Positions 42,430-60,610 of a stretch of DNA of 64,000 nucleotides are shown here, piece by piece. The notes beneath the pieces were generated by a model. The model made no database searches. It saw nothing but the letters and a program-made list of their open reading frames with translations, and was not told the origin of the DNA. The stretch is from positions 64,001 through 128,000 of the forward strand of contig JBHLMP010000001.1 in assembly GCA_048938025.1 (NCBI GenBank), read 5' to 3'. The stretch's first letter is position 1; each line of letters begins with the position of its first letter. Made by a program: the position numbers and the translations under genes. The DNA is from Promethearchaeota archaeon. Lineage in GTDB: Archaea; Asgardarchaeota; Lokiarchaeia; Sigyniarchaeales; SOKP01.

Positions 42430-43377
42430 TTATTTTTCTTGAACAGTTTTTTTATTAATGAACTCGTTATTATCTGAATTTTCTTTAACAACATTTGATT
42501 TTTTTTCAATAACACTTAATCTTTTTTCTAAAATTGTCATTGTTTCAATGATATTATCAATTTTTTTGTTAATATTTTTCATGTGATTTTGGATTTCTCC
42601 TAATTGATTTAGTGTAAATTTCATCAATTCAGGTTCTTTTACGGGTTCAATCAACCATTTTAAAATGTTAGTTATTAATAACTGATTATCTAGTTGACTT
42701 AAACCAATATTAGAATCGTTTGTGAATATATCTATGTCTCCCAGTGCGATTACTCTACCTTGACCATATTCATTATATGCTCCTATAATTTGTTCTTCTT
42801 CTTCCTCTCTAATCCATTCCTCATTAGAACTATTGTATTTCTCTGACCATACATTTGTTTTATTTGTTAATAATAAGGGCTTAGCGTCTTTAGTTAATAA
42901 TAAAGAACACGTTCCTCCAATTAAGACTTCCCTTAATCCATTTGCTATCTGTTTATTATTAAATCTTTGAATATGTATTATACTTGTACAATTCTGGTTT
43001 GCACTATTTAATTCTTTTACTAAATTCTTCTGAAAATATATTCCAAAATATGTTCCAGATATATCATTGAGATTTGTTTTTTGTAGATAATCTGCTCCAT
43101 ATTCACTCAAAATTAGTAAATTACCTCCCATTCTAACAAAATCAACAATAGTTTTTATTTCAATATTAGAAAAATAATCATCTATAGGAGTTCCTATAAT
43201 TAGGATGTCTATATCTTGTAATAATTCCTGAGATAAATCTCTATTCTCATTTTTCTTCGTATTAATATTCAATCTCTGTAGAAGTGTAAAAAATTCAGAA
43301 AATTCCTCCTCTTCGATATGTAACATCTCGTTATGACTCAAATCGAAAAGTATATTTGTTTTTTTCAAAAAAGGCAT
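42430..43377 (-). CDS. GIFT (GldG/IFT52)/DUF4350-like domain protein with C-terminal coiled coil
   Basis: ILFDLSHNE, FVRMGGNLLI, TNLN, GQGRVIALGD.DIF and DN..LI.NI.KWL motifs. Confidence 0.65.
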   Translation of the reverse strand: MPFLKKTNILFDLSHNEMLHIEEEEFSEFFTLLQRLNINTKKNENRDLSQELLQDIDILIIGTPIDDYFSNIEIKTIVDFVRMGGNLLILSEYGADYLQKTNLNDISGTYFGIYFQKNLVKELNSANQNCTSIIHIQRFNNKQIANGLREVLIGGTCSLLLTKDAKPLLLTNKTNVWSEKYNSSNEEWIREEEEEQIIGAYNEYGQGRVIALGDIDIFTNDSNIGLSQLDNQLLITNILKWLIEPVKEPELMKFTLNQLGEIQNHMKNINKKIDNIIETMTILEKRLSVIEKKSNVVKENSDNNEFINKKTVQEK

Positions 43378-49116: not shown

Positions 49117-52100
49117 ATGGTTGAAAAGCAAAAAGATGAAACACTATTAGAAAAAGCACAGTTAGAAGAAAATAATTATAATTGGATAGAAGCAGCAAAG
49201 CTTTATGAGCAAATTTTAAATTACTTCTTGGAAAGGAATATGATTGATAAGGTTGCATTTGCTTATAAAAAATTGGGTTTTACTAATGTAATGGCCTCAG
49301 AAATGGCAGATTCACCCGTTGATTTAAGTAATAGGTGTAAAAATGCTATTGATGCCTATGATAAAGCAATAAAATTGTTTAATCAGATTGGTTCCAAGGA
49401 AGAAGAATTGGAGTGTATGGGAGATAAATTATATGCTCAGATATTTATTTCAACATCTAATGAAGAAATAAAGAATTCACTTAAAGATGCATTTAAAATC
49501 TTCCTTGAAGCTAGTGAATTATACTCTCAAAAAGGAGACAATGAAAGTAAAGCAAGAACTCTGAGTAGAGCTTTATTCTGCATAGGTTGGGTAATGAACT
49601 GTCTATCTGAAGAATCTGAATATGATCTTTTATATTACAAGTATTTAGATTTAATAGATAAAGCTTTGAAATCTGCGATAGAAGTAAAAAATGTCAGAGA
49701 CTTAGGTGAAGTAATATATGGCATTTTCCTCATTTGTTTCTTTCAAATCTATTTTAAGAATTTTAGAAAGGATGATGATTTTAAAAACATTATGATGAAT
49801 CTAAGAAAAAAAATTAATGATACCATAGATTTAATTGGAGATTCCGAGGATTATAGAGCACTTAGCATGATTTATTATACATATGGACAAATTTATTGTG
49901 GTTACGCATGTCATTTTATTAAAAATGAGATAGAACAGATAGATATGTCTATTAAAGGAATAAGTATACTTGAGAAAGCCTTAAATTATGCAAGAAAAGC
50001 TAATAATAACCATTTAATAACTGCATCAATATTCTTTATTGATTGGTGGGCTTTTTTCCAAAGAAGATTAAATTATGTTCAAAAGAGAATTTATGGTGAT
50101 GTCAATGAAATGTTAAAACTGAGTAAGATGGTGGGACATAATCACTATTGTTTCTATGCATTATTTTTACCAGTTTTTTATTATGCTAATATGTCTCAAA
50201 GAAGCTTCTTCACTATTCGTCAAAGAAAATCCTATGCTAAACAGGCTATTAAATATGCAAAAGAAGCCTTAAATTTAACCTCTAATCTACCTTACTCGGC
50301 ATGGCCTTATCAAATGTTAACATACAGTTATTCAGAATTAACACGTCTCTCCTCTTTAAAAGACGAACAGAATAAATATTCTGATAAAATGTTTGACTAT
50401 GCTCAGAAAGCAGTAGAAATTAGTAAGAATTATGAAGGTGGATTAATTCGTGCAACAGGTTATTCTTCTATGTATAGAGCATACAAAACTCTTGCAGATC
50501 TGACTTTGAATGAAGAAAATAAGATAAACATGTTATCCTCGGCTGCTGAAGCGGCAAAGGAATATTTAGAGTATACCCCAGAATCTTATACAGCAGAATT
50601 GATAGGACAAATCCGATTGGGATTATTATTAGAGGATATTGGTATAATCTCAGGAAAAATAGATTCTTTAGAACAAGCGAAGGAAATCTTTTATAACTTA
50701 CTTAATGAAAGCACCGAGAGTGGTCGTTATTCTTATGCTGCTGCTACAAGTGAATACATTGCTCGCATAGAGGATAGATTAGGAAATAATAAGTCTTCTG
50801 CTGAATTATATAATAAAGCTCGAGTTTTGTATTCTGAATCATTAAAAACTATTAAATATAAACCACTTAAAGAAAGGAGCAAAGAGAAAATACAATATGC
50901 GGAAGCTTGGGCATTAATAGAAACTGCTAAGTTATATCATAAAGAAGAGAATCATATTAGCGCAAAAGATTGTTATGAAAAGGCTTGTCAAATCCTGGGA
51001 AAATTACCTCGGTATAATTTTGAGGGTTCATATTATAATGCTTGGATTTATTTAGAAGAAGCAGAACATTTAAGTAAACAAGCAAAACATTCAGATGCTA
51101 TAGAAAAATTTGTTGCAAGTAGTAAATATTTCACTGATGCATTAAATGAATTGGATACAATTATAGAGAAATCCAAGGATAAAATGGAAATAGATCGTAT
51201 TAATAAATTGATTAACGTAGCAAAGATTAGAATTAATTATTCCAATGCTAGAGCGGATGTTGAAAATGCGAGGATTTTAGGGAAAAAGGGAGAGCATCTA
51301 ACTGCAGGAGAAAAATTTTCGGTTGCAGCTTCGCAATTTAAATACATATGCACTAAGTTTGAGTTAGAGAGAGAAAGAAAAGAATTAGAAGCAGTATATT
51401 ACCTTTGCAAAGCTTGGGAAAACATGGAACTAGCAGAAAATTCTGAAGATTTTCAAAGATATTCAAATGCGTCATCCTTATTTGATAAAGCCAGTAATTT
51501 ATTTATTGAAAACAAATTAAAAATGCTTTCTTTGGGTAATTCATCGTTTTGTCAAGCTTTAGAGCTTGGCTGCAAATTTGATGCAACAATTAAAACAGAA
51601 ATAAAAGCAGAAATATATACAAAAATCAAAATAATACTTAGAAAATCAGCTACTTATTATAATAAAGGTGGATTTGAAAGTGGAGCAGAGTGGGCATTAG
51701 CCACCTCTATATATTTTGATGCAAGTTGGCATTTAATTAGAGCAGATCAAGAAGTAGATCTTGAGGAAAAAAATAAACTTTTAGAAATAGGATCTGGGTT
51801 CCTTAAGTCTGCTGCTGAACTTTTCGCTAAAGCAGGTTATAAAAATAAAGAAAGAGAACTCCTAGAAAGTTTAGATATGGTATTGAAAGAGAAAAAAATA
51901 ATTCTGACTGCTTTAAATACAATAATACAACCTGCGATAACAAAAAGTACTGTTGGTATAATTGCCCCAGCTTGTCCTATTGAAACTAGTGAATCTCCAA
52001 AATTAAGTGAGGTGAGTAGTTATACACAAGAATATGATTCAGAAGAAATAAAAGAAGTAATTAAAGAGAAATATAAATTAATTTATAAAGATTTATTAAA

Positions 52101-52941
52101 AGGGCACCCTGAGAAGCAAATTGATAAAATAAGAGTGGGGGTTGCTCAAATAGGTACTTCTGCCACTGGAGATATATTAAATGAGTTTTATGATGAAAAA
52201 CCTCCTGGTCTATTAACTCTTAAAGACACGAAAGTAAATGAAATCAAATCAAAAATAAAAGAAATGGTTCAAAAAGCTTATCAAGCAAATGTGAATATTT
52301 TACTTTTTCCAGAAATGACAGTAGATCTTAAATATAAACAATTTCTTGATGATATTTCAAATCTTGCTAAAAAATATGAAATGTATATTATTCCTGGCTC
52401 ATATCATAATATTGAAGCAAAAAGTAATGTAAGCTCTATTATTGGTCCTGAAGGGATTCTCTGGCAACAAGAAAAACACATTCCTGCCCTTATAAGTCTT
52501 GAGGGAAGAAAATTTAAAGAAGGAATAAACACAAGTAATCTTCCTCGAAAAACATTTGTATGTAATACTAAATTTGGAAGAATAGTAATTGCAATTTGTC
52601 GCGATTTTCTTGATATGGATTTAAGAGTAGAATTGAAAAACTTCGAGCCCCCTATAGATTTAATTTTCAATCCAGCCTTTACACCAGTTACAGCTGATTT
52701 TAAAGCAGTTCATTTTGATGCGCGTAGGTCAATTTATGCATATACTTTTTTTGCTAATGTGGCAGATTATGGTGACTCTCTTATCTATACTCCAGAAAAG
52801 GAACGTACAGAAAGAGTCTTACCTGCAAAGGAGGTAAATATAATTTATAAGGACGTGGATCTCTTTAAACTGCGTTCAGAAAGGAAAAAATGGCAGAAAA
52901 TAAAAGAAGCTGAAACTCGATTTATTCAGAGTACGAGATAG
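49117..52941 (+). CDS. large TPR-like solenoid protein with C-terminal carbon-nitrogen hydrolase domain
   Basis: About 950 aa of helical repeats, then RVGVAQ, LFPE, QEKH and AICRDF (E-K-C triad). Confidence 0.8.
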   Translation: MVEKQKDETLLEKAQLEENNYNWIEAAKLYEQILNYFLERNMIDKVAFAYKKLGFTNVMASEMADSPVDLSNRCKNAIDAYDKAIKLFNQIGSKEEELECMGDKLYAQIFISTSNEEIKNSLKDAFKIFLEASELYSQKGDNESKARTLSRALFCIGWVMNCLSEESEYDLLYYKYLDLIDKALKSAIEVKNVRDLGEVIYGIFLICFFQIYFKNFRKDDDFKNIMMNLRKKINDTIDLIGDSEDYRALSMIYYTYGQIYCGYACHFIKNEIEQIDMSIKGISILEKALNYARKANNNHLITASIFFIDWWAFFQRRLNYVQKRIYGDVNEMLKLSKMVGHNHYCFYALFLPVFYYANMSQRSFFTIRQRKSYAKQAIKYAKEALNLTSNLPYSAWPYQMLTYSYSELTRLSSLKDEQNKYSDKMFDYAQKAVEISKNYEGGLIRATGYSSMYRAYKTLADLTLNEENKINMLSSAAEAAKEYLEYTPESYTAELIGQIRLGLLLEDIGIISGKIDSLEQAKEIFYNLLNESTESGRYSYAAATSEYIARIEDRLGNNKSSAELYNKARVLYSESLKTIKYKPLKERSKEKIQYAEAWALIETAKLYHKEENHISAKDCYEKACQILGKLPRYNFEGSYYNAWIYLEEAEHLSKQAKHSDAIEKFVASSKYFTDALNELDTIIEKSKDKMEIDRINKLINVAKIRINYSNARADVENARILGKKGEHLTAGEKFSVAASQFKYICTKFELERERKELEAVYYLCKAWENMELAENSEDFQRYSNASSLFDKASNLFIENKLKMLSLGNSSFCQALELGCKFDATIKTEIKAEIYTKIKIILRKSATYYNKGGFESGAEWALATSIYFDASWHLIRADQEVDLEEKNKLLEIGSGFLKSAAELFAKAGYKNKERELLESLDMVLKEKKIILTALNTIIQPAITKSTVGIIAPACPIETSESPKLSEVSSYTQEYDSEEIKEVIKEKYKLIYKDLLKGHPEKQIDKIRVGVAQIGTSATGDILNEFYDEKPPGLLTLKDTKVNEIKSKIKEMVQKAYQANVNILLFPEMTVDLKYKQFLDDISNLAKKYEMYIIPGSYHNIEAKSNVSSIIGPEGILWQQEKHIPALISLEGRKFKEGINTSNLPRKTFVCNTKFGRIVIAICRDFLDMDLRVELKNFEPPIDLIFNPAFTPVTADFKAVHFDARRSIYAYTFFANVADYGDSLIYTPEKERTERVLPAKEVNIIYKDVDLFKLRSERKKWQKIKEAETRFIQSTR

Positions 52942-52971: not shown

Positions 52972-54261
52972 CTAATCAATTTTTGCACCACATACAGGAC
53001 AATTTTTTGGATTATGAAGTTGGAGTGTTGCACCACAAATTTTACAAAGTTTTACTGTTCCTCTTATTTTTGGAGGATTTAATGTTGTAATAGAAATCTG
53101 TTCTTTAATTTCAACCGAAGGTGTTAATTTTCTATCTGAAATCTGAGTTACTGATTCTTTTATCTTATTATTATTAACCTTTACTTCTATCTCTCTACCA
53201 AAAAACCCTCCTATTCGCACTTTTTTCTTCATGTCTGGTCGTGGAATAGAAGGAGGTTTTAAAGAATTTAACTCTATTTCTCCATATAGTTCTTGCTCCA
53301 ATTCTTCATCTCTATATTCTTCTTTAGATTGCTCAATTATAGGTTCTTCTCCTTGTTCTTCTTCATATATCATATTGACATATTCTTCGTCTAATTTTAG
53401 CAATGTTTGGCATTGAGGGCATCTAAAAATATGCATAAAACCTATATTTTTAGCAAGTGAGTATTTTGCCGCACAACAACTATGAAATTTAGTATTACAG
53501 TTAAAACATTTATGTATCTCGTCAGAATGAGCTTCACAAATTGGACAAACTTCTTGTTCACAGATCGTACAAATTTCTTCGTCATCAGGAGAGAGAGTAA
53601 TTAAATCTACTGCCAATTTTTCATAGAAAATTTGATCTTCTACTAAAATTTGATCTTCTTCATCAGTGTGAATTATTTTAAATTCCTTTTTGCTTTGAAC
53701 TAATGATCCAAGAATATTGTGGAAGAGTTTTTCATTAGTGCAATAAAAGGTCCCACCATGGGTTTCACTTGAAATTACTTTCAGTTTGACATCATCATCG
53801 TAGAATTTCTCGTCTCCAACTCGAATAATATCAATAAAAGCTGAAAATTTTTTTGCTTTAATCAACAAATCATAAAGAGCTAAATGATACTCCTCAGATA
53901 ATTTACTAGGAGTATCTGAAATAATTATAACACGATAATCTTTTCTAACTTTTTGACTTCTCTTAAAAATATAAGCAAGAATTTCATATAAGCCATTTTC
54001 TAAATAGCTATGTTCGACTTCACGAGTGTCCCATGCGTCATTTATAGTATTTAAAACTGTTTCTGTTTCCTTTAAGTCATAAGCAGTAATAGGATTATCT
54101 TCTTTTTGAAAAAATACTATACCATAAGAGCTTAAAGCATTAAATTTATTCTTTTCTTTAATAAATGCTCCTATAGCTTTCAGCAGTGGCTTTTTTTTTA
54201 GAAAACTCGTCGTTAAATCAATGTAAAATATGAATTCCTCAGAATTTATGGTTGTTAACAT
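52972..54261 (-). CDS. vWA + RING/PHD-like Zn finger + Zn-ribbon protein (Ssl1/p44-like)
   Basis: vWA strands FIFYIDLT, VIIISD, IDIIRV and ETHGG. Cys pattern CxxC-CxxC-CxxC-FHxxC-CPxC plus terminal CxxC..CPxC. Confidence 0.7.
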   Translation of the reverse strand: MLTTINSEEFIFYIDLTTSFLKKKPLLKAIGAFIKEKNKFNALSSYGIVFFQKEDNPITAYDLKETETVLNTINDAWDTREVEHSYLENGLYEILAYIFKRSQKVRKDYRVIIISDTPSKLSEEYHLALYDLLIKAKKFSAFIDIIRVGDEKFYDDDVKLKVISSETHGGTFYCTNEKLFHNILGSLVQSKKEFKIIHTDEEDQILVEDQIFYEKLAVDLITLSPDDEEICTICEQEVCPICEAHSDEIHKCFNCNTKFHSCCAAKYSLAKNIGFMHIFRCPQCQTLLKLDEEYVNMIYEEEQGEEPIIEQSKEEYRDEELEQELYGEIELNSLKPPSIPRPDMKKKVRIGGFFGREIEVKVNNNKIKESVTQISDRKLTPSVEIKEQISITTLNPPKIRGTVKLCKICGATLQLHNPKNCPVCGAKID

Positions 54262-54411
54262 TTTATCATCAAAGTCAATTCTAATTTATAAGATATTAAA
54301 AATTTATAAAAGAATAATAATAGAAATTGTATTTATTTTTATTTATATTATTAAAATCTTTATTTTTATATTAAAAAAAAGTATTATTAATAAGAATTTA
54401 ATAATTTCAAG

Positions 54412-55701
54412 TTATAATTTAGTTCCACATTTCGGACATTTGAATTGTTCATTCGATGTTATCTGAGTTCCACATTCCGGACAAAACCTAAAATGTAGTT
54501 CCTTTTTATTATCGTTTAAATGGCTATTTATTGATTCTTTGGATTCAGTGGGCTCTGTTTTTGAAGGAGGTTTTAAAGAACTTTTAGTAGTTTTTTCATA
54601 TACTATTTTATCTCCAAGCTTCTTCACTGTATAAACCTTTCCAAAGAACCCACCGATCCTAACGGTATTAGGTTTTTCTTCAGGTATTTGATCTTTTAGT
54701 GGAATATCTTCGTCAACTTCTTTTTTTTCTACAATTGATGATTCTTTAATATCTTGACTCTCTAAGGTTTTTTCTAATCCGTCTATTCCAATATAGTCAT
54801 TGGTGGAAGCTTGAACTATTAAATCTTGATTAATTTGAAGTAGAACATCACAATCTGGATTGGGGCATCTAAATATATGAGGTATACCGATATTGTGATG
54901 AATTGTATAATTTGTAACACAACACTGATGAAAGCTAGTGTTGCATGAATCACAAAATAAAGGAATATCACTAAGTTCTCCACAGATTGGACAGATTTCT
55001 TCATGACAGAAATGACACTTTAAACCTGTTGCATTAACAGGTTCTTTTAGTTTCCGAGCTAACTTATCATAAAAAGCAAAATCTTCTTTACTAATTTTTA
55101 TATGATCTGGTCGATCTGCAAAAATGCTGACTAGTGGTTTAGTTTTTACTAACTTTTTTATTACATCAGAAAACTCTTTTCTATCTTGTACATAAAAGAT
55201 TCCTCCCTTAGTATCACTTGCCAATACATTTAATTTTACATCGTCGCTAAAAAACCTAGTTCCCTTCTCAGAGATTCTTATAATGTCTATAAAAGTGGGA
55301 AAGTATTTTATTTTTGATACTAAATTAAATAATGCTTCTTGATATTCACTACCAAGATCACTAGGAGTATCTGTAATAATAATTATTCGGTTGTATTTTG
55401 ATTTTTTTCTTACTGTCTCAGCTATATAAGAGAAAATATAAAATAAACCATTTTCAAAATAACTTATCTTTTTGGGTCTAAACTTCCAATTTTCTTCAAT
55501 AGCATTAGTAATTATGCTAGCTTCTTTTTTATCAGTTATGAAAACAGGATTTCCTTTTTCTTGAAACATAAGAAGAGAATAATGACCCTTTATATTAGCT
55601 TTATTCTTTTCTTCAATATAATATTTAATAGTTTTTATAAGTTCTTTCTTTCTCAACATCTCCTTAGTTAAATCTAAGTAAAAATAAATATCTTCAGTCA
55701 T
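54412..55701 (-). CDS. vWA + RING/PHD-like Zn finger + Zn-ribbon protein, tandem paralog
   Basis: Same architecture; ATG 55701 follows GGTGTGA. Confidence 0.7.
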   Translation of the reverse strand: MTEDIYFYLDLTKEMLRKKELIKTIKYYIEEKNKANIKGHYSLLMFQEKGNPVFITDKKEASIITNAIEENWKFRPKKISYFENGLFYIFSYIAETVRKKSKYNRIIIITDTPSDLGSEYQEALFNLVSKIKYFPTFIDIIRISEKGTRFFSDDVKLNVLASDTKGGIFYVQDRKEFSDVIKKLVKTKPLVSIFADRPDHIKISKEDFAFYDKLARKLKEPVNATGLKCHFCHEEICPICGELSDIPLFCDSCNTSFHQCCVTNYTIHHNIGIPHIFRCPNPDCDVLLQINQDLIVQASTNDYIGIDGLEKTLESQDIKESSIVEKKEVDEDIPLKDQIPEEKPNTVRIGGFFGKVYTVKKLGDKIVYEKTTKSSLKPPSKTEPTESKESINSHLNDNKKELHFRFCPECGTQITSNEQFKCPKCGTKL

Positions 55702-55872
55702 TATTCTCACACCATATTCCAAACTTCAGTTAATTATTAATAATGATAAAGATAAAACCTCTTTAAAAACTTATTATAAAAGATAAATAAATAAAAAAAT
55801 AGTTATTAATAAAAAATCATATGGTTTATAAATTTATTAGTAGAATTCAAAAAAATTATGTGATATTTCAAT

Positions 55873-57843
55873 ATGGACAAATTTTTAAAACAATTAGGGC
55901 TCTCAAATGATACTATCGATATATATATTAAGTCATTAGGAAGAACCTCTCTTACATATTATGAACTCTACTCAATGGTTCCAAAAATTACTGAAGGGGA
56001 ATTCGAAAATAGCCTTAATGAACTTATAGACTCAGGACTAATAATTCAATTAATCCCTCAAAAACAGGAAATCCTTTTAAAGTATTTAACTATTCCTCCT
56101 TTTGGACCAATAATCGCATATTATGAGAACATTGATGCGAATTTAACAAACATTAAAAATTCAATTCAAGAATTAATAGCTAATTCATTAAAACAAATTT
56201 TTAAGAGTAATAGAATAGTTGATATGGATTCTGTTTTCACCGTTTTTCAAGAAATTAAAAAAGATATTGAAGAAGATAATATTATTCAAAAAAGAGAAAT
56301 TGAAGATATTTTTGAGGGTATGGAGGATCTGAATAAGCTTAAAAAGGAGCTTTCTGAAATTCATCAACAGATTAAAAGCATTATACAAACTCAATTTTCA
56401 GATCTATTAAAATTAATTTCAAATCTTAAAGATGATTTAACTAAAAAAATTAATTCATTAGAATTTAAGAAATATAAGAAAGAAATTATCGAGATAATTG
56501 AAGAATTATTTAAAGCAAGATTAGATGAGATAGTAGGAAATTTTATTAATAAATTACATAATCAAATAGGAGATGAGTTTAGTAATACAAATAAATCTAC
56601 TGATAATATTATGGAGTCTGTTTTTCAATATCGTGAAGATTTTAAAATGCTCCTCTTAAACATGTTAAATAATTTTGAAACAAAAATGAATACCATTTTC
56701 GGAATGATTAAAGATAATAAAGAAAATCTTGTAAATGACATTCAAGCCCTTGAAAGCAAGATCACGGAGAGTTTAAATGTTATAGTTAGAAATTCTATAA
56801 ATGAAGTCTCAAAATTAAATAAACCTATTGAAAGTGTAATGAAAAATAGTTTTGAGATGTTGATTTCTTCTGATAAGGCATTGATTAATGATATTTGGAC
56901 GATAAGGAGTGTAACTAATGTTAATGAAGAGATTCAAAAGTTAATAAATAACACAAATAAAACTCTTTTTCTTATTATTCCTAATCTTGAAAATCATTTA
57001 GCAATTGAACATTTTGGAAAACAATCTGGAAATTTGAAAATAAAGATCGCCTCTTCAGAAGCACACACTAATAGTCTTGTTAAGAAGTTAAAAAGTGTAA
57101 AAAATTTAGAGTATAAAACTCTGCAAAATGAAAATATAATTGCTTTAAAAGGGGATGATAATCATATCGTTATAGGATTAGTCCAAGATAATCAAAAAGA
57201 ACCTCTAGAAGATTTTATTGGATTTGGGAGTAATTTTAAACCCTTAATAAAGATATTCGAGCCTATTATAGATACTACATGGGCAGCAGCGTATTCAGAT
57301 ACTTATTATGCTACTCAACAAACAAAAATTCAAACAACAGCCCCCAAGAAAGTTGCTGCTATAAAACCTACAGTAATTAAGGAAGCAAAACCTATAACTC
57401 CTATAAAAACGGAGTCCATTAAAACTAAAGACATTCCGAAACAGATTAAGGAACCTATTAAAATTCAAGAGAAATCTACTCCAAAACCTCTAAAAGTCAC
57501 TACTGAATACTCAATACCTAAGGAGAAAATAACAGATTTAACTCAAAAACTAAAGAAAAATTTAACTATACTCCCGAAAGCTGGTGATGAAGCAGGTATG
57601 TTTATCAATGATGCCTTTAATAGTCTTATTTTGCAATTAAATAATTTAACGGGAGAGGACTTTAGTTTAGAGTTGCAAAAAATAGCGGACTTAATTTTAG
57701 AGAAAAAAGGTTTCTCAGTTATTTTACACCAATTAAGAAGTACTATAAATGAATACAAAAATCATTATAAATTGTTAAATAAAAATGAAAAAAATCAAAT
57801 AGTCGAATTTATTAATAATTGGAAGCAGAAATTATTTCAATAA
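55873..57843 (+). CDS. TrmB-like HTH + long helical/coiled-coil + PLD-like domain protein
   Basis: LKQLGLS....IY..L and L..L...GLI..Y..IPPF N-terminus, helical middle, LFLIIP/IKIAS domain, Pro/Lys/Thr linker and helical tail. Confidence 0.6.
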   Translation: MDKFLKQLGLSNDTIDIYIKSLGRTSLTYYELYSMVPKITEGEFENSLNELIDSGLIIQLIPQKQEILLKYLTIPPFGPIIAYYENIDANLTNIKNSIQELIANSLKQIFKSNRIVDMDSVFTVFQEIKKDIEEDNIIQKREIEDIFEGMEDLNKLKKELSEIHQQIKSIIQTQFSDLLKLISNLKDDLTKKINSLEFKKYKKEIIEIIEELFKARLDEIVGNFINKLHNQIGDEFSNTNKSTDNIMESVFQYREDFKMLLLNMLNNFETKMNTIFGMIKDNKENLVNDIQALESKITESLNVIVRNSINEVSKLNKPIESVMKNSFEMLISSDKALINDIWTIRSVTNVNEEIQKLINNTNKTLFLIIPNLENHLAIEHFGKQSGNLKIKIASSEAHTNSLVKKLKSVKNLEYKTLQNENIIALKGDDNHIVIGLVQDNQKEPLEDFIGFGSNFKPLIKIFEPIIDTTWAAAYSDTYYATQQTKIQTTAPKKVAAIKPTVIKEAKPITPIKTESIKTKDIPKQIKEPIKIQEKSTPKPLKVTTEYSIPKEKITDLTQKLKKNLTILPKAGDEAGMFINDAFNSLILQLNNLTGEDFSLELQKIADLILEKKGFSVILHQLRSTINEYKNHYKLLNKNEKNQIVEFINNWKQKLFQ

Positions 57844-58650: not shown

Positions 58651-58801
58651 TCTCTTTTCCTAATTAATTTATTATGTATTAATTAAGCCTTATTGAATAA
58701 AAACATTTTCTTAAGAAATATGTAAGTCTCCGTTTCCTTAACTTTATAAAAGAGAGTTACCATTTTTAGCATAATAATTTATAAAAAAAAATTTGATTCC
58801 A

Positions 58802-59497
58802 ATGTATTGTAATATTTGTGGAGCGGAAATAAAAGACCCTAATCAAAAATTTTGTGAAAGTTGTGGAAATGAGCTTCCACCTAAAGCTATTTCTGAACAA
58901 GGATCAGCACAAACAACGGTAACTCCGACTACAATGCCCCAACATCGCCCTGGTGGGCTGTTTGACATTAACCGGAATTATTACATCCTTAAAGAAAAGT
59001 ATTGGGACTGGGGAAGCGGTGATATCTTAGATGAGAATAATCAAATGATCGGTAGAATGAAAAGAGTTATCTTAAGCATAAGACGTAGAGTTGAACTTCA
59101 AGAAGTTGATGGTACAATTTCAGCTACAATTCATGCTAAACTTGTATCTGCTCGTGGAGCTCAGGATTTGAAAACACCTAATGGACAATTGATAGCGAGA
59201 ATTAAGAAGAAGATTTTATCGCTTTTTCGGCCAGTCTTTTATTTGGAGGCTCCTGATGGTACTCAATGGTATAGAGCACAAGGTAAACTGATGGGATGGT
59301 CCTATAAAGTATATGATGTCTCAACAGGAAAAACAATCGCTGAAATCGAGAAAGCTGATAAATGGAGAGACATTTTTCTTGGTGGATTATTAGATTTTAA
59401 GGACACATATGCGTTAAAAATACTAGATAATGAAACTGATCGAAGGATTTTACTTGGCTTTGTCTTATCAATAGATAATATACTACACGATTATTAA
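58802..59497 (+). CDS. zinc-ribbon + LURP-one/scramblase (Tubby-C-like) protein
   Basis: YCNICG..KFCESCG, repeated beta-hairpin units (DG..IA.I.KK), DTYAL.I and a terminal hydrophobic helix ending ID. Confidence 0.8.
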   Translation: MYCNICGAEIKDPNQKFCESCGNELPPKAISEQGSAQTTVTPTTMPQHRPGGLFDINRNYYILKEKYWDWGSGDILDENNQMIGRMKRVILSIRRRVELQEVDGTISATIHAKLVSARGAQDLKTPNGQLIARIKKKILSLFRPVFYLEAPDGTQWYRAQGKLMGWSYKVYDVSTGKTIAEIEKADKWRDIFLGGLLDFKDTYALKILDNETDRRILLGFVLSIDNILHDY

Positions 59498-59656: not shown

Positions 59657-60610
59657 ATGACTATAACTTATGAAGAATTTCTAGTTTTTGATTTAGAAAA
59701 TGATGGGGAAAAAACGAAGTTAGATATAGAACAAGAAGATCTCCAGAACTATTTGAATCCTGAGCAGGTTCTAGTTATCATCCGAGAAGATTTAAGAAGA
59801 ATTTATATTTGGAAGGGAGCAAAATCCGCAGTAAGAAAGAGGTTTATTAGTTCAAGAGTTGCACATGATTTACAAAAAGAATTGTTAGATGATCCTAGAT
59901 ATCATCGCTGTAAAATAGTATCTATAGATCAAGGTGATGAACTTCAAGAATTTTTAGACGCTTTTCAACTAGAATCAATGGAAGTTACTGAAAGATTACC
60001 TGATATGCGATACATACGAAATATCGAACGAGAAACAATGAAAGAAGCAGGACAAATTGTTAAAGGAAAAACTGAAGACGCTTACTATTCACCAGCGTTT
60101 CAAGATATAAGTAGCGATGTTGTTATGTCCTCTATTGTTCAAAAACCGAAATTGACTATCGGATTATCTAAAGAAGAGCAAAATCAAATTAAGAAAAAAA
60201 TACTTAAAACTGAAGTTCCCCCTGATTTTAAGAGACAAAATCTCATTCTTGGCCATACTTTATTTGCTGCTGTAACGAAGATTTCAAAAGTCTTCGATGA
60301 ACATGTTGAGGAAATTGTATGGGAGCCAGTCAAGAAAATTCCAAAAGAAATAATGAATTTAGAAAATCATAAATTAAGAGTATATTTAGATAAAAACAAA
60401 GGTATTGTTGAAGCTGTAGAAGTATTGAAAAAAGAAGAAAAACCTAAACAAAATATTACACCTGAAAAGAAAACTTCGAAGCCATCACCCATTAAGAGTT
60501 CAACTTCTAAGAAGGCTTCATTGACTCCAATGCCACCAAAACCTGCCTCGATGAAACAAAATTCAAAAGAAACTGAACCTCAAGAGAAACAAGATAAACA
60601 GGAAATATAA
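59657..60610 (+). CDS. gelsolin-domain protein (single gelsolin domain + unknown domain)
   Basis: L.PEQVLVI....IYIWKG..S and I..IDQGDE..EF are gelsolin signatures. Confidence 0.75.
   Translation: MTITYEEFLVFDLENDGEKTKLDIEQEDLQNYLNPEQVLVIIREDLRRIYIWKGAKSAVRKRFISSRVAHDLQKELLDDPRYHRCKIVSIDQGDELQEFLDAFQLESMEVTERLPDMRYIRNIERETMKEAGQIVKGKTEDAYYSPAFQDISSDVVMSSIVQKPKLTIGLSKEEQNQIKKKILKTEVPPDFKRQNLILGHTLFAAVTKISKVFDEHVEEIVWEPVKKIPKEIMNLENHKLRVYLDKNKGIVEAVEVLKKEEKPKQNITPEKKTSKPSPIKSSTSKKASLTPMPPKPASMKQNSKETEPQEKQDKQEI

Follow-up and report, generated by a model that had tools for sequence, protein, structure and literature searches.

Archaea are, to our knowledge, generally described as having XPB and XPD without the core of the transcription factor TFIIH. 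Two adjacent genes in the window analysed here (the whole 64-kb stretch of DNA from a Promethearchaeota archaeon, with a G+C content of 25–37%) raise the question of whether such a core could have an archaeal counterpart. The genes, which we named A and B, were called as open reading frames (ORFs) on the minus strand, and a first-pass annotation of this DNA had likened them to the p44(Ssl1)/p34 module of TFIIH or to an Rpn10-like vWA/E3 pair of an Asgard ubiquitin system. According to their sequences, A and B belong to an undescribed vWA-RING family which, as far as searched, is confined to one order of Loki-type Asgard archaea, and they are not the p44/p34 pair. We tentatively read them as a lineage-specific RING-type adaptor or E3 (ubiquitin ligase)-like module of the host's ubiquitin-like system, with a probability of roughly 0.42. 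No publication on the family was found in a literature search; supplementary tables of Asgard gene-family surveys may list it.

52972..54261, minus strand: gene A, 429 amino acids (aa), with vWA domain, RING-type finger, acidic linker, GGFFG hairpin and zinc ribbon.
54412..55701, minus strand: gene B, 429 aa from the ATG at 55701, with the same architecture as A.
54262..54411, minus strand: B-A spacer, 150 nucleotides (nt), with a T-run immediately behind the B stop codon and, 5′ of the A start, TATA-like TTTATAAAT/CTTATAAAT boxes.

A and B are 37% identical over 435 columns (BLASTP, expect value (E) 7e-84). This similarity is far above chance, so that the two adjacent genes at 52972..55701 are paralogs, as the first-pass annotation had stated, and the four elements it had named (vWA, Cys-rich finger, VRIGGFFG motif and terminal zinc ribbon) were each found in both proteins. 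A longer ORF of B is possible from a TTG at 55722 (54412-55722, minus strand, 436 aa). The ATG at 55701 is favoured as the start, and the end coordinate given earlier was right, because the orthologs begin there: B from this ATG starts MTEDIYFY, and B orthologs share the start MxEDxYFYLDL. Orthologs of A in 80 related loci showed 44–90% identity. B is the gene next upstream of A, in the same orientation, in 70 of these 80 loci, so the tandem arrangement is conserved as well. Among the other ten, six have a contig that stops within 700 nt of A, one has a weak B-like match only, and three (L045, L080 and L088) have at least 1.9 kb upstream of A without a B-like match. The spacer measured 115–580 nt in 38 loci, mostly 135–181 nt. 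Its TATA-like boxes are suggestive at most, because the genome is AT-rich; a sigma-70 promoter scan gave 14 sites against 18.5 expected, but this is uninformative for an archaeon. The ratio of nonsynonymous to synonymous substitution rates was 0.13–0.25 for A and 0.16–0.28 for B, indicating that purifying selection acts on both genes.

53686..54249, minus strand: A vWA domain, residues 5-192, with a degenerate metal ion-dependent adhesion site (MIDAS), D-L-T-T-S for DxSxS, and without the 7-residue KPNRL-type insert.
55132..55701, minus strand: B vWA domain, residues 1-190, with the degenerate MIDAS D-L-T-K-E; it aligns with the A vWA domain.

The DxSxS sequence of a canonical metal-binding vWA domain is present in neither A nor B, while two further paralogs in the genome, D1 and D2, carry D-T-S-R-S. 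The 7-residue insert (DTSRSM..D[FY].PNRL) kept by D1 and D2 is also missing from A and B, and the sequences indicate that the metal-ion site of the A/B vWA domain was lost. Pfam VWA matched A weakly (E 0.032) and was matched by 19 of the 46 members of an A+B alignment, with a best E of 1.7e-6. An AlphaFold2 model of A, built from a 31-row alignment, had a mean predicted local distance difference test score (pLDDT) of 66.5, and its alpha/beta domain at residues 8-190 was confident (pLDDT 83–93). When the model was compared with the PDB by Foldseek, TFIIH chains were on top: 8ebs_E (GTF2H2, p44; E 6.1e-13), yeast chain 6, which we take to be Ssl1 (E 1.9e-11), and chain 4 (TFB4; E 9.2e-11). AtRpn10 (E 1.8e-8) and MERIT40 (6gvw_D; E 2.3e-8) were also matched. 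Structural Z scores for the vWA domain were 18.5–19.6 for human p44 (best: root mean square deviation 2.7, 176 aligned, 17% identity), 17.6–18.3 for yeast chain 6, 18.2 for ArnB (8s05_A), 16.5–17.2 for Rpn10, 16.5–16.9 for p34, 16.4–16.8 for Sec23/24, and about 17 for an integrin and other vWA domains. The structure-based alignment of A to human p44 showed 16–17% identity over 175–178 residues. Thus p44 is the closest solved structure to the A vWA fold, but its lead over the generic vWA fold is 1.4–2.6 Z units.

Sequence profiles favoured Rpn10 over p44, unlike the structure ranking. Single-sequence PDB searches with A and B gave weak RING, PHD and CTCF finger matches only, and a profile of A and B alone found no vWA domain among the best 60 of its 87 PDB matches; the vWA signal emerged only once more distant family members joined the profile. 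With 50 A-, B- and C-type members, the profile matched human Rpn10 (PSMD4) at E 9.8e-6, MERIT40 at 1.6e-3 and p44 at 0.064. After four canonical vWA-RING relatives were added, the values were 2.5e-8 for Rpn10, 1.2e-6 for a bacterial BatA-like vWA, 9.2e-6 for MERIT40, 1.6e-5 for Tfb4 and 3.7e-3 for p44. The A/B vWA domain therefore belongs to the Rpn10/p44/Tfb4/MERIT40 group, the eukaryote-type intracellular vWA domains. It was not assigned to p44 in particular, because p44 is only narrowly first in structure and Rpn10 is first by sequence.

53362..53589, minus strand: A RING-type finger, residues 225-300, a C4HC3 cross-brace with an extra CxxC (C239, C242), D247 and C262.
54808..55035, minus strand: B RING-type finger, residues 223-298, with C229, C232, C237, C240, C250, C253, H258, C260, C261, C279 and C284 invariant.

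In A numbering, C231, C234, C252, C255, H260, C263, C281 and C284 were invariant across 50–54 family members. Their spacing in A is C-x2-C-x17-C-x2-C-x4-H-x2-C-x17-C-x2-C, a C4HC3 pattern that agrees with the spacing of PHD fingers. The finger was of medium confidence in the full A model, and a finger-only model built with 64 cropped sequences reached pLDDT 91.5. A structural search with the latter against 48,161 chains listed 50 matches, all of them RING or U-box domains. The Z scores were 6.1 for 4ccg_Y and 5.9 for 7kzp_L (both presumably FANCL), 5.4 and 5.3 for Listerin/Ltn1, 5.0 for Deltex, 5.0 for NSE1, 4.3 for APC11, 4.2 for p44 residues 327-387 and 3.7 for yeast chain 6; by Foldseek, the best rows were the RINGs of Slx1, Deltex, Rbx2, APC11 and NSE1. 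The invariant ligands and the domain model place eight zinc-ligand positions in a cross-brace, as in RING domains. The modelled finger is thus of the same cross-brace type as the p44 C-terminal RING domain, with which the first-pass annotation had compared it, yet it is not specifically p44-like and is closer to the RINGs of FANCL, Listerin, Deltex and NSE1. A family profile also matched the PHD fingers of MTF2, KMT2D and Jade-1 at E 8e-5 to 3e-4, with PHD matches ranging up to 5e-4.

Besides the eight ligands, C239, C242, D247 and C262 are common to the A family, the B family and their single-copy relatives. In a weak hidden Markov model alignment to RBX2, the extra CxxC, D247 and C262 fell on the third-zinc positions of Rbx, and I233 and Y267 on its Ile and Trp; this alignment is a guide only, because its E is 0.19. 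In Rbx proteins, the former residues hold a third zinc and the latter contact the E2 (ubiquitin-conjugating enzyme). By analogy, C239, C242, D247 and C262 may hold a third zinc, and the A/B finger probably holds three zinc ions, as in Rbx and APC11. Both paralog families conserve residues of the E2-contact type, namely Ile in CxIC, the aromatic residue and Pro in CPxC.

53227..53361, minus strand: A acidic linker, residues 301-345, poorly conserved and predicted to be disordered, in a gappy part of the alignment.
53197..53220, minus strand: A VRIGGFFG motif, residues 348-355, at the tip of a predicted basic beta-hairpin.
54640..54663, minus strand: B VRIGGFFG motif, residues 347-354, the same motif as in A.
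52975..53046, minus strand: A C-terminal zinc ribbon, residues 406-429, CxxC-x11-CxxC (406-424), with C406, C409, C421 and C424 invariant.
54415..54483, minus strand: B C-terminal zinc ribbon, residues 407-429, CxxC-x11-CxxC (407-425), with C407, C410, C422 and C425 invariant.

In the A model, residues 304-345 had pLDDT below 50, and the whole stretch 304-401 was disordered, containing a low-confidence hairpin at 345-361 with predicted strands at 345-350 and 356-361. G351, G352, F353, F354 and G355 at its tip were invariant in the A+B alignment. The GGFFG sequence was found in A, B and a single-copy genus of the same family, and it was found neither in the five sister-family single-copy proteins examined nor in paralog C. 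Pfam zinc-ribbon matches of A and B were below the cut-off (B to Zn_Ribbon_1: E 1.4e-4, 22 bits against 25), and Zn_ribbon_3 was matched by 39 of the 46 members of the A+B alignment.

The range of the family was surveyed in 301 sampled Asgard genomes, with a match defined as E ≤ 1e-10. The A/B family was found in 74 of them; every one belongs to a single class and almost every one to a single order: 66 of 68 genomes of its own family, 6 of 7 of the sister family of the order (single copy each), one of one, weakly, in a third family of the class and none of one in a fourth. It was not found in any of the 223 sampled genomes of 26 further Asgard families, which is not to say that it is absent there. 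Close homologs of both paralogs number in the hundreds and are labelled as Promethearchaeota or Lokiarchaeota metagenome-assembled genomes, often with consecutive locus tags. An exhaustive search of representatives gave 276 clusters at E ≤ 1e-3; ten were looked up, and the six that were named were all Asgard.

A duplication tree was built from 66 rows, namely 23 of 39 A and 23 of 38 B sequences (subsampled), 8 single-copy proteins and 12 C-type proteins as outgroup. A and B were each monophyletic with support of 100/99. A and B formed a clade with a genus of their own family that has a single copy (98/94); this genus grouped with A at 95/91, and the single copies of the sister family lay outside the clade. 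The outgroup branches were long. In approximately unbiased tests, the sister family with A gave p 0.09 and with B p 0.053, so the data disfavour, without strictly rejecting, an earlier duplication at the root of the order with later loss. In both cases the duplication stays within a single archaeal order, and it is therefore not the split between p44 and p34.

Three further paralogs of A and B are encoded elsewhere in the genome.

Contig C76 (L003:1120-2274), plus strand: paralog C, 384 aa, with vWA domain, plain C4HC3 finger and zinc ribbon, without GGFFG and without the extra CxxC.
Contig C75 (L101:835-2016), minus strand: paralog D1, 393 aa, matching Pfam Ssl1 at 47.6 bits (cut-off 27).
Contig C66 (L102:817-2019), minus strand: paralog D2, 400 aa, matching Pfam Ssl1 at 37.5 bits (cut-off 27).

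D1 and D2 were the only genes found when the whole genome was searched with Pfam Ssl1 (PF04056). They have an intact MIDAS, a first finger as in A and B and a second RING/PHD finger, and D2 matched zf-RING_2 at 32.7 bits, above the cut-off of 27.3. Judged by these matches, D1 and D2 are better 'Ssl1-like' candidates than the A/B pair. A D-type query was found in 77 of the 301 Asgard genomes, all of one class. Like A and B, D1 was found in three families (68/68, 7/7 and 1/1) and in 0 of 223 genomes elsewhere. Over its vWA domain and finger (positions 5-294), the A+B profile matched P0383, a protein of the D type, at E 9.6e-12; P0383 itself matched Rpn10 at E 3e-8 and p44 at 0.06. In the ESM Atlas, Asgard clusters annotated as Ssl1 scored 0.94. 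Among distant relatives, P0288, P0291 and P0292 matched Pfam PHD above the cut-off, with weaker matches to Prok-RING_1 and RING models. Three proteins of about 1100 aa from Promethearchaeia (P0337, P0341 and P0343) share only the finger and linker (profile positions about 177-350) and have another architecture. A 402-aa RagA/Gtr1-Arf-like small GTPase (L102:2231-3439, plus strand; Gtr1_RagA 78.6 bits, Arf 69.3) lies head-to-head with D2.

We favour a RING-type adaptor or E3-like module because a vWA domain without metal site is joined to a cross-brace finger in a tandem pair that is under selection and has a narrow range. The reading is further supported because the genome has E2-like and ubiquitin-like genes elsewhere (5 UQ_con and 3 ubiquitin-like matches over the cut-off), the pair is kept together, and relatives pass the PHD or zf-RING_2 cut-off. 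A and B would work together. The finger would recruit a charged E2 through the hydrophobic residue in CxIC, the aromatic residue at the Rbx tryptophan position and the proline in CPxC, the metal-less vWA domain would dock a substrate or partner, and the basic GGFFG hairpin and the ribbon would anchor the module on another component. We infer the association of A with B, E2 binding and any ligase activity from these sequence features. Several results weigh against the module. All Pfam RING, PHD and Prok-RING matches of A and B were below the gathering score, no Foldseek match of the finger was found at E ≤ 1e-3 (best 0.026), and its structure matches were of low Z (about 6 or less). After its last cysteine the finger lacks the basic 'linchpin' residue typical of active RINGs, and a RING-like domain, such as that of p44, can act purely in protein-protein contacts. 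The pair is flanked by housekeeping genes in a syntenic block and not by genes for E1, E2 or ubiquitin. Among the 20 sequencing runs listed as containing this stretch, none is of RNA.

55873..57843, plus strand: coiled-coil neighbour, 656 aa, divergent from B, with a weak TrmB-like winged helix-turn-helix at the N-terminus (E 0.14, 12.4 bits).

The gene of this 656-aa protein was kept in all 48 long related loci, and its product is a possible partner or regulator of A/B. Other neighbours are purA and genes for a PhoU-like protein, a phosphate transporter, an EamA transporter, a CDP-alcohol phosphatidyltransferase, LOR-like, gelsolin-like and HEAT-repeat proteins and a DeoC aldolase. Most neighbour genes recur in the majority of the 48 long loci, but this conservation is unspecific and carries little functional information, because the whole block is syntenic; the gene neighbourhood was therefore rejected as a functional clue. 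A TPR-repeat protein of 1274 aa (49117-52941, plus strand), whose C-terminal region is CN_hydrolase-like (E 0.01), converges on gene A; since only 3 of 80 related loci have it, it appears to be an insertion into the syntenic block specific to this lineage. A 234-aa protein (58793-59497, plus strand) combines an N-terminal zinc ribbon with a LURP-one-related/scramblase-like domain (LOR 31 bits, cut-off 24.5), and a 317-aa protein (59657-60610, plus strand) has an N-terminal gelsolin-repeat-like region (Gelsolin E 1.2e-3, 19.1 bits against 21) and a Lys/Pro/Ser-rich tail. A 315-aa protein (42430-43377, minus strand) matches the IFT52 GIFT domain (34.1 bits, cut-off 27.2) and, less strongly, OST48_N.

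The main rival of the E3-like module is a non-catalytic scaffold, in which finger and vWA domain would be protein interfaces of a multi-subunit assembly with no ubiquitin chemistry. In TFIIH, the p44 RING contacts the p34 vWA domain as a structural interface. The closest structural relatives of the A vWA domain are p44 and Ssl1, its MIDAS was lost as in docking-only vWA domains, and ubiquitin-system genes are missing beside the pair. A precedent for scaffolds with RING and vWA domains is given by Ste5 and Far1, described as RING-PH-vWA scaffolds (PMC3023161). However, the residues of the E2-contact type are conserved in both paralog families, and nothing points to the assembly that would be held together; we regard a pure scaffold as doubtful. 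A receptor of the Rpn10 type, whose vWA domain would dock a proteasome or Cdc48-type unfoldase while the remainder captures tagged substrates, is very improbable. Pfam scans of A and B gave no ubiquitin-interacting motif (UIM) or other ubiquitin-binding motif, and the MIDAS-region motif common to Rpn10 and D1/D2 is deleted. The broader suggestion of an Rpn10-like vWA/E3 pair in the Asgard ubiquitin system nevertheless fits better than TFIIH. The likeness of the vWA domain to Rpn10 was recovered (E 9.8e-6), and the function would be that of the E3-like module above.

That A and B are a genuine archaeal counterpart of the p44/p34 core, which would heterodimerise and regulate XPD/XPB-type helicases, is quite unlikely. 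The Foldseek alignment of A to TFIIH chains spans more than 300 columns and includes the zinc region, the genome has one XPD-like DEAD_2 helicase, and eukaryotic TF2H2 clusters (0.86–0.89) and Tfb4 (0.83) follow the Asgard clusters in the ESM Atlas, where scores below 0.9 are leads only. Against this, the duplication happened within a single order, which the best tree narrows to one family (98/94), and the sister family is single-copy. Pfam Ssl1 gave no match in A at E ≤ 10 or in B at E ≤ 1, Pfam Tfb4 and C1_4 (PF07975) matched neither protein, and the profiles preferred Rpn10 (9.8e-6) to p44 (0.064). The XPD-like gene lies on a different contig, and the family was not found in the 223 Asgard genomes of 26 other families. 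What stands of the TFIIH proposal is the vWA group, p44 as top structural match, the RING-type cross-brace and the conserved tandem arrangement; the identification of A and B with p44 and p34 does not. We give little credence to a transcription or chromatin factor in which the finger would be a PHD-type reader and the pair would act with the divergent TrmB-like coiled-coil protein. The C4HC3 spacing, the profile matches to the MTF2, KMT2D and Jade-1 fingers, the three distant relatives above the Pfam PHD cut-off and the coiled-coil gene kept in 48 of 48 long loci are in its favour, but the structure matches are RING E3 domains and not PHD readers, the TrmB match is weak (E 0.14), and neighbour conservation in a syntenic block is unspecific.

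How the eukaryotic intracellular vWA proteins (p44, p34 and Rpn10) arose is an open question, and an Asgard order is seen here to join that type of vWA domain to RING-type fingers. The Lokiarchaeial vWA-RING superfamily (A, B, C, D1 and D2) might be the sister group, among archaea, of the eukaryotic clade of intracellular vWA proteins (p44, p34, Rpn10 and MERIT40), although we hold this to be unlikely. If it were so, both the scaffold of the TFIIH core and the ubiquitin receptor of the proteasome would derive from a vWA-RING adaptor that served an Asgard ubiquitin-like system, and A/B would be a living example of duplication into a metal-less heteromeric scaffold. The recent duplication that gave this conserved pair is a parallel to the possible origin of p44 and p34. 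Even if not ancestral to TFIIH, the pair would offer a tractable prokaryotic vWA-RING module for studying RING adaptors in Asgard ubiquitin-like systems. Its significance is tempered by the narrow distribution and the lack of a functional link.

Among known systems, p44/Ssl1 and p34/Tfb4 resemble A and B in that a zinc-finger region with the cross-brace of RINGs follows the vWA domain, whereas A and B lack the MIDAS-region motif and have an added GGFFG hairpin and terminal zinc ribbon. The vWA domain of Rpn10/PSMD4 is related in sequence, but A and B have neither its UIMs nor the MIDAS-region insert, and Rpn10 has no RING finger. Ste5/Far1 and ArnB, the archaeal vWA protein of the ArnA-ArnB pair, differ from A and B in domain order and partners, and no sequence relationship to either was detected. 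With the C4HC3 or three-zinc RINGs of E3 enzymes (FANCL, Listerin/Ltn1, NSE1, Rbx1/2 and APC11) the modelled finger shares the cross-brace fold; it differs in lacking the linchpin and in being fused to a vWA domain, and its Foldseek values stay at 0.026 or above. D1 and D2, which correspond to the Asgard 'Ssl1-like' ESM Atlas clusters of about 391 aa, share with A and B the vWA domain and first finger by descent, the sequence 'FRCPxC..LL' and the phyletic range. In contrast to A and B, they keep DxSxS and the KPNRL-type insert and pass Pfam Ssl1, and in them a second RING/PHD finger takes the place of the GGFFG hairpin and ribbon.

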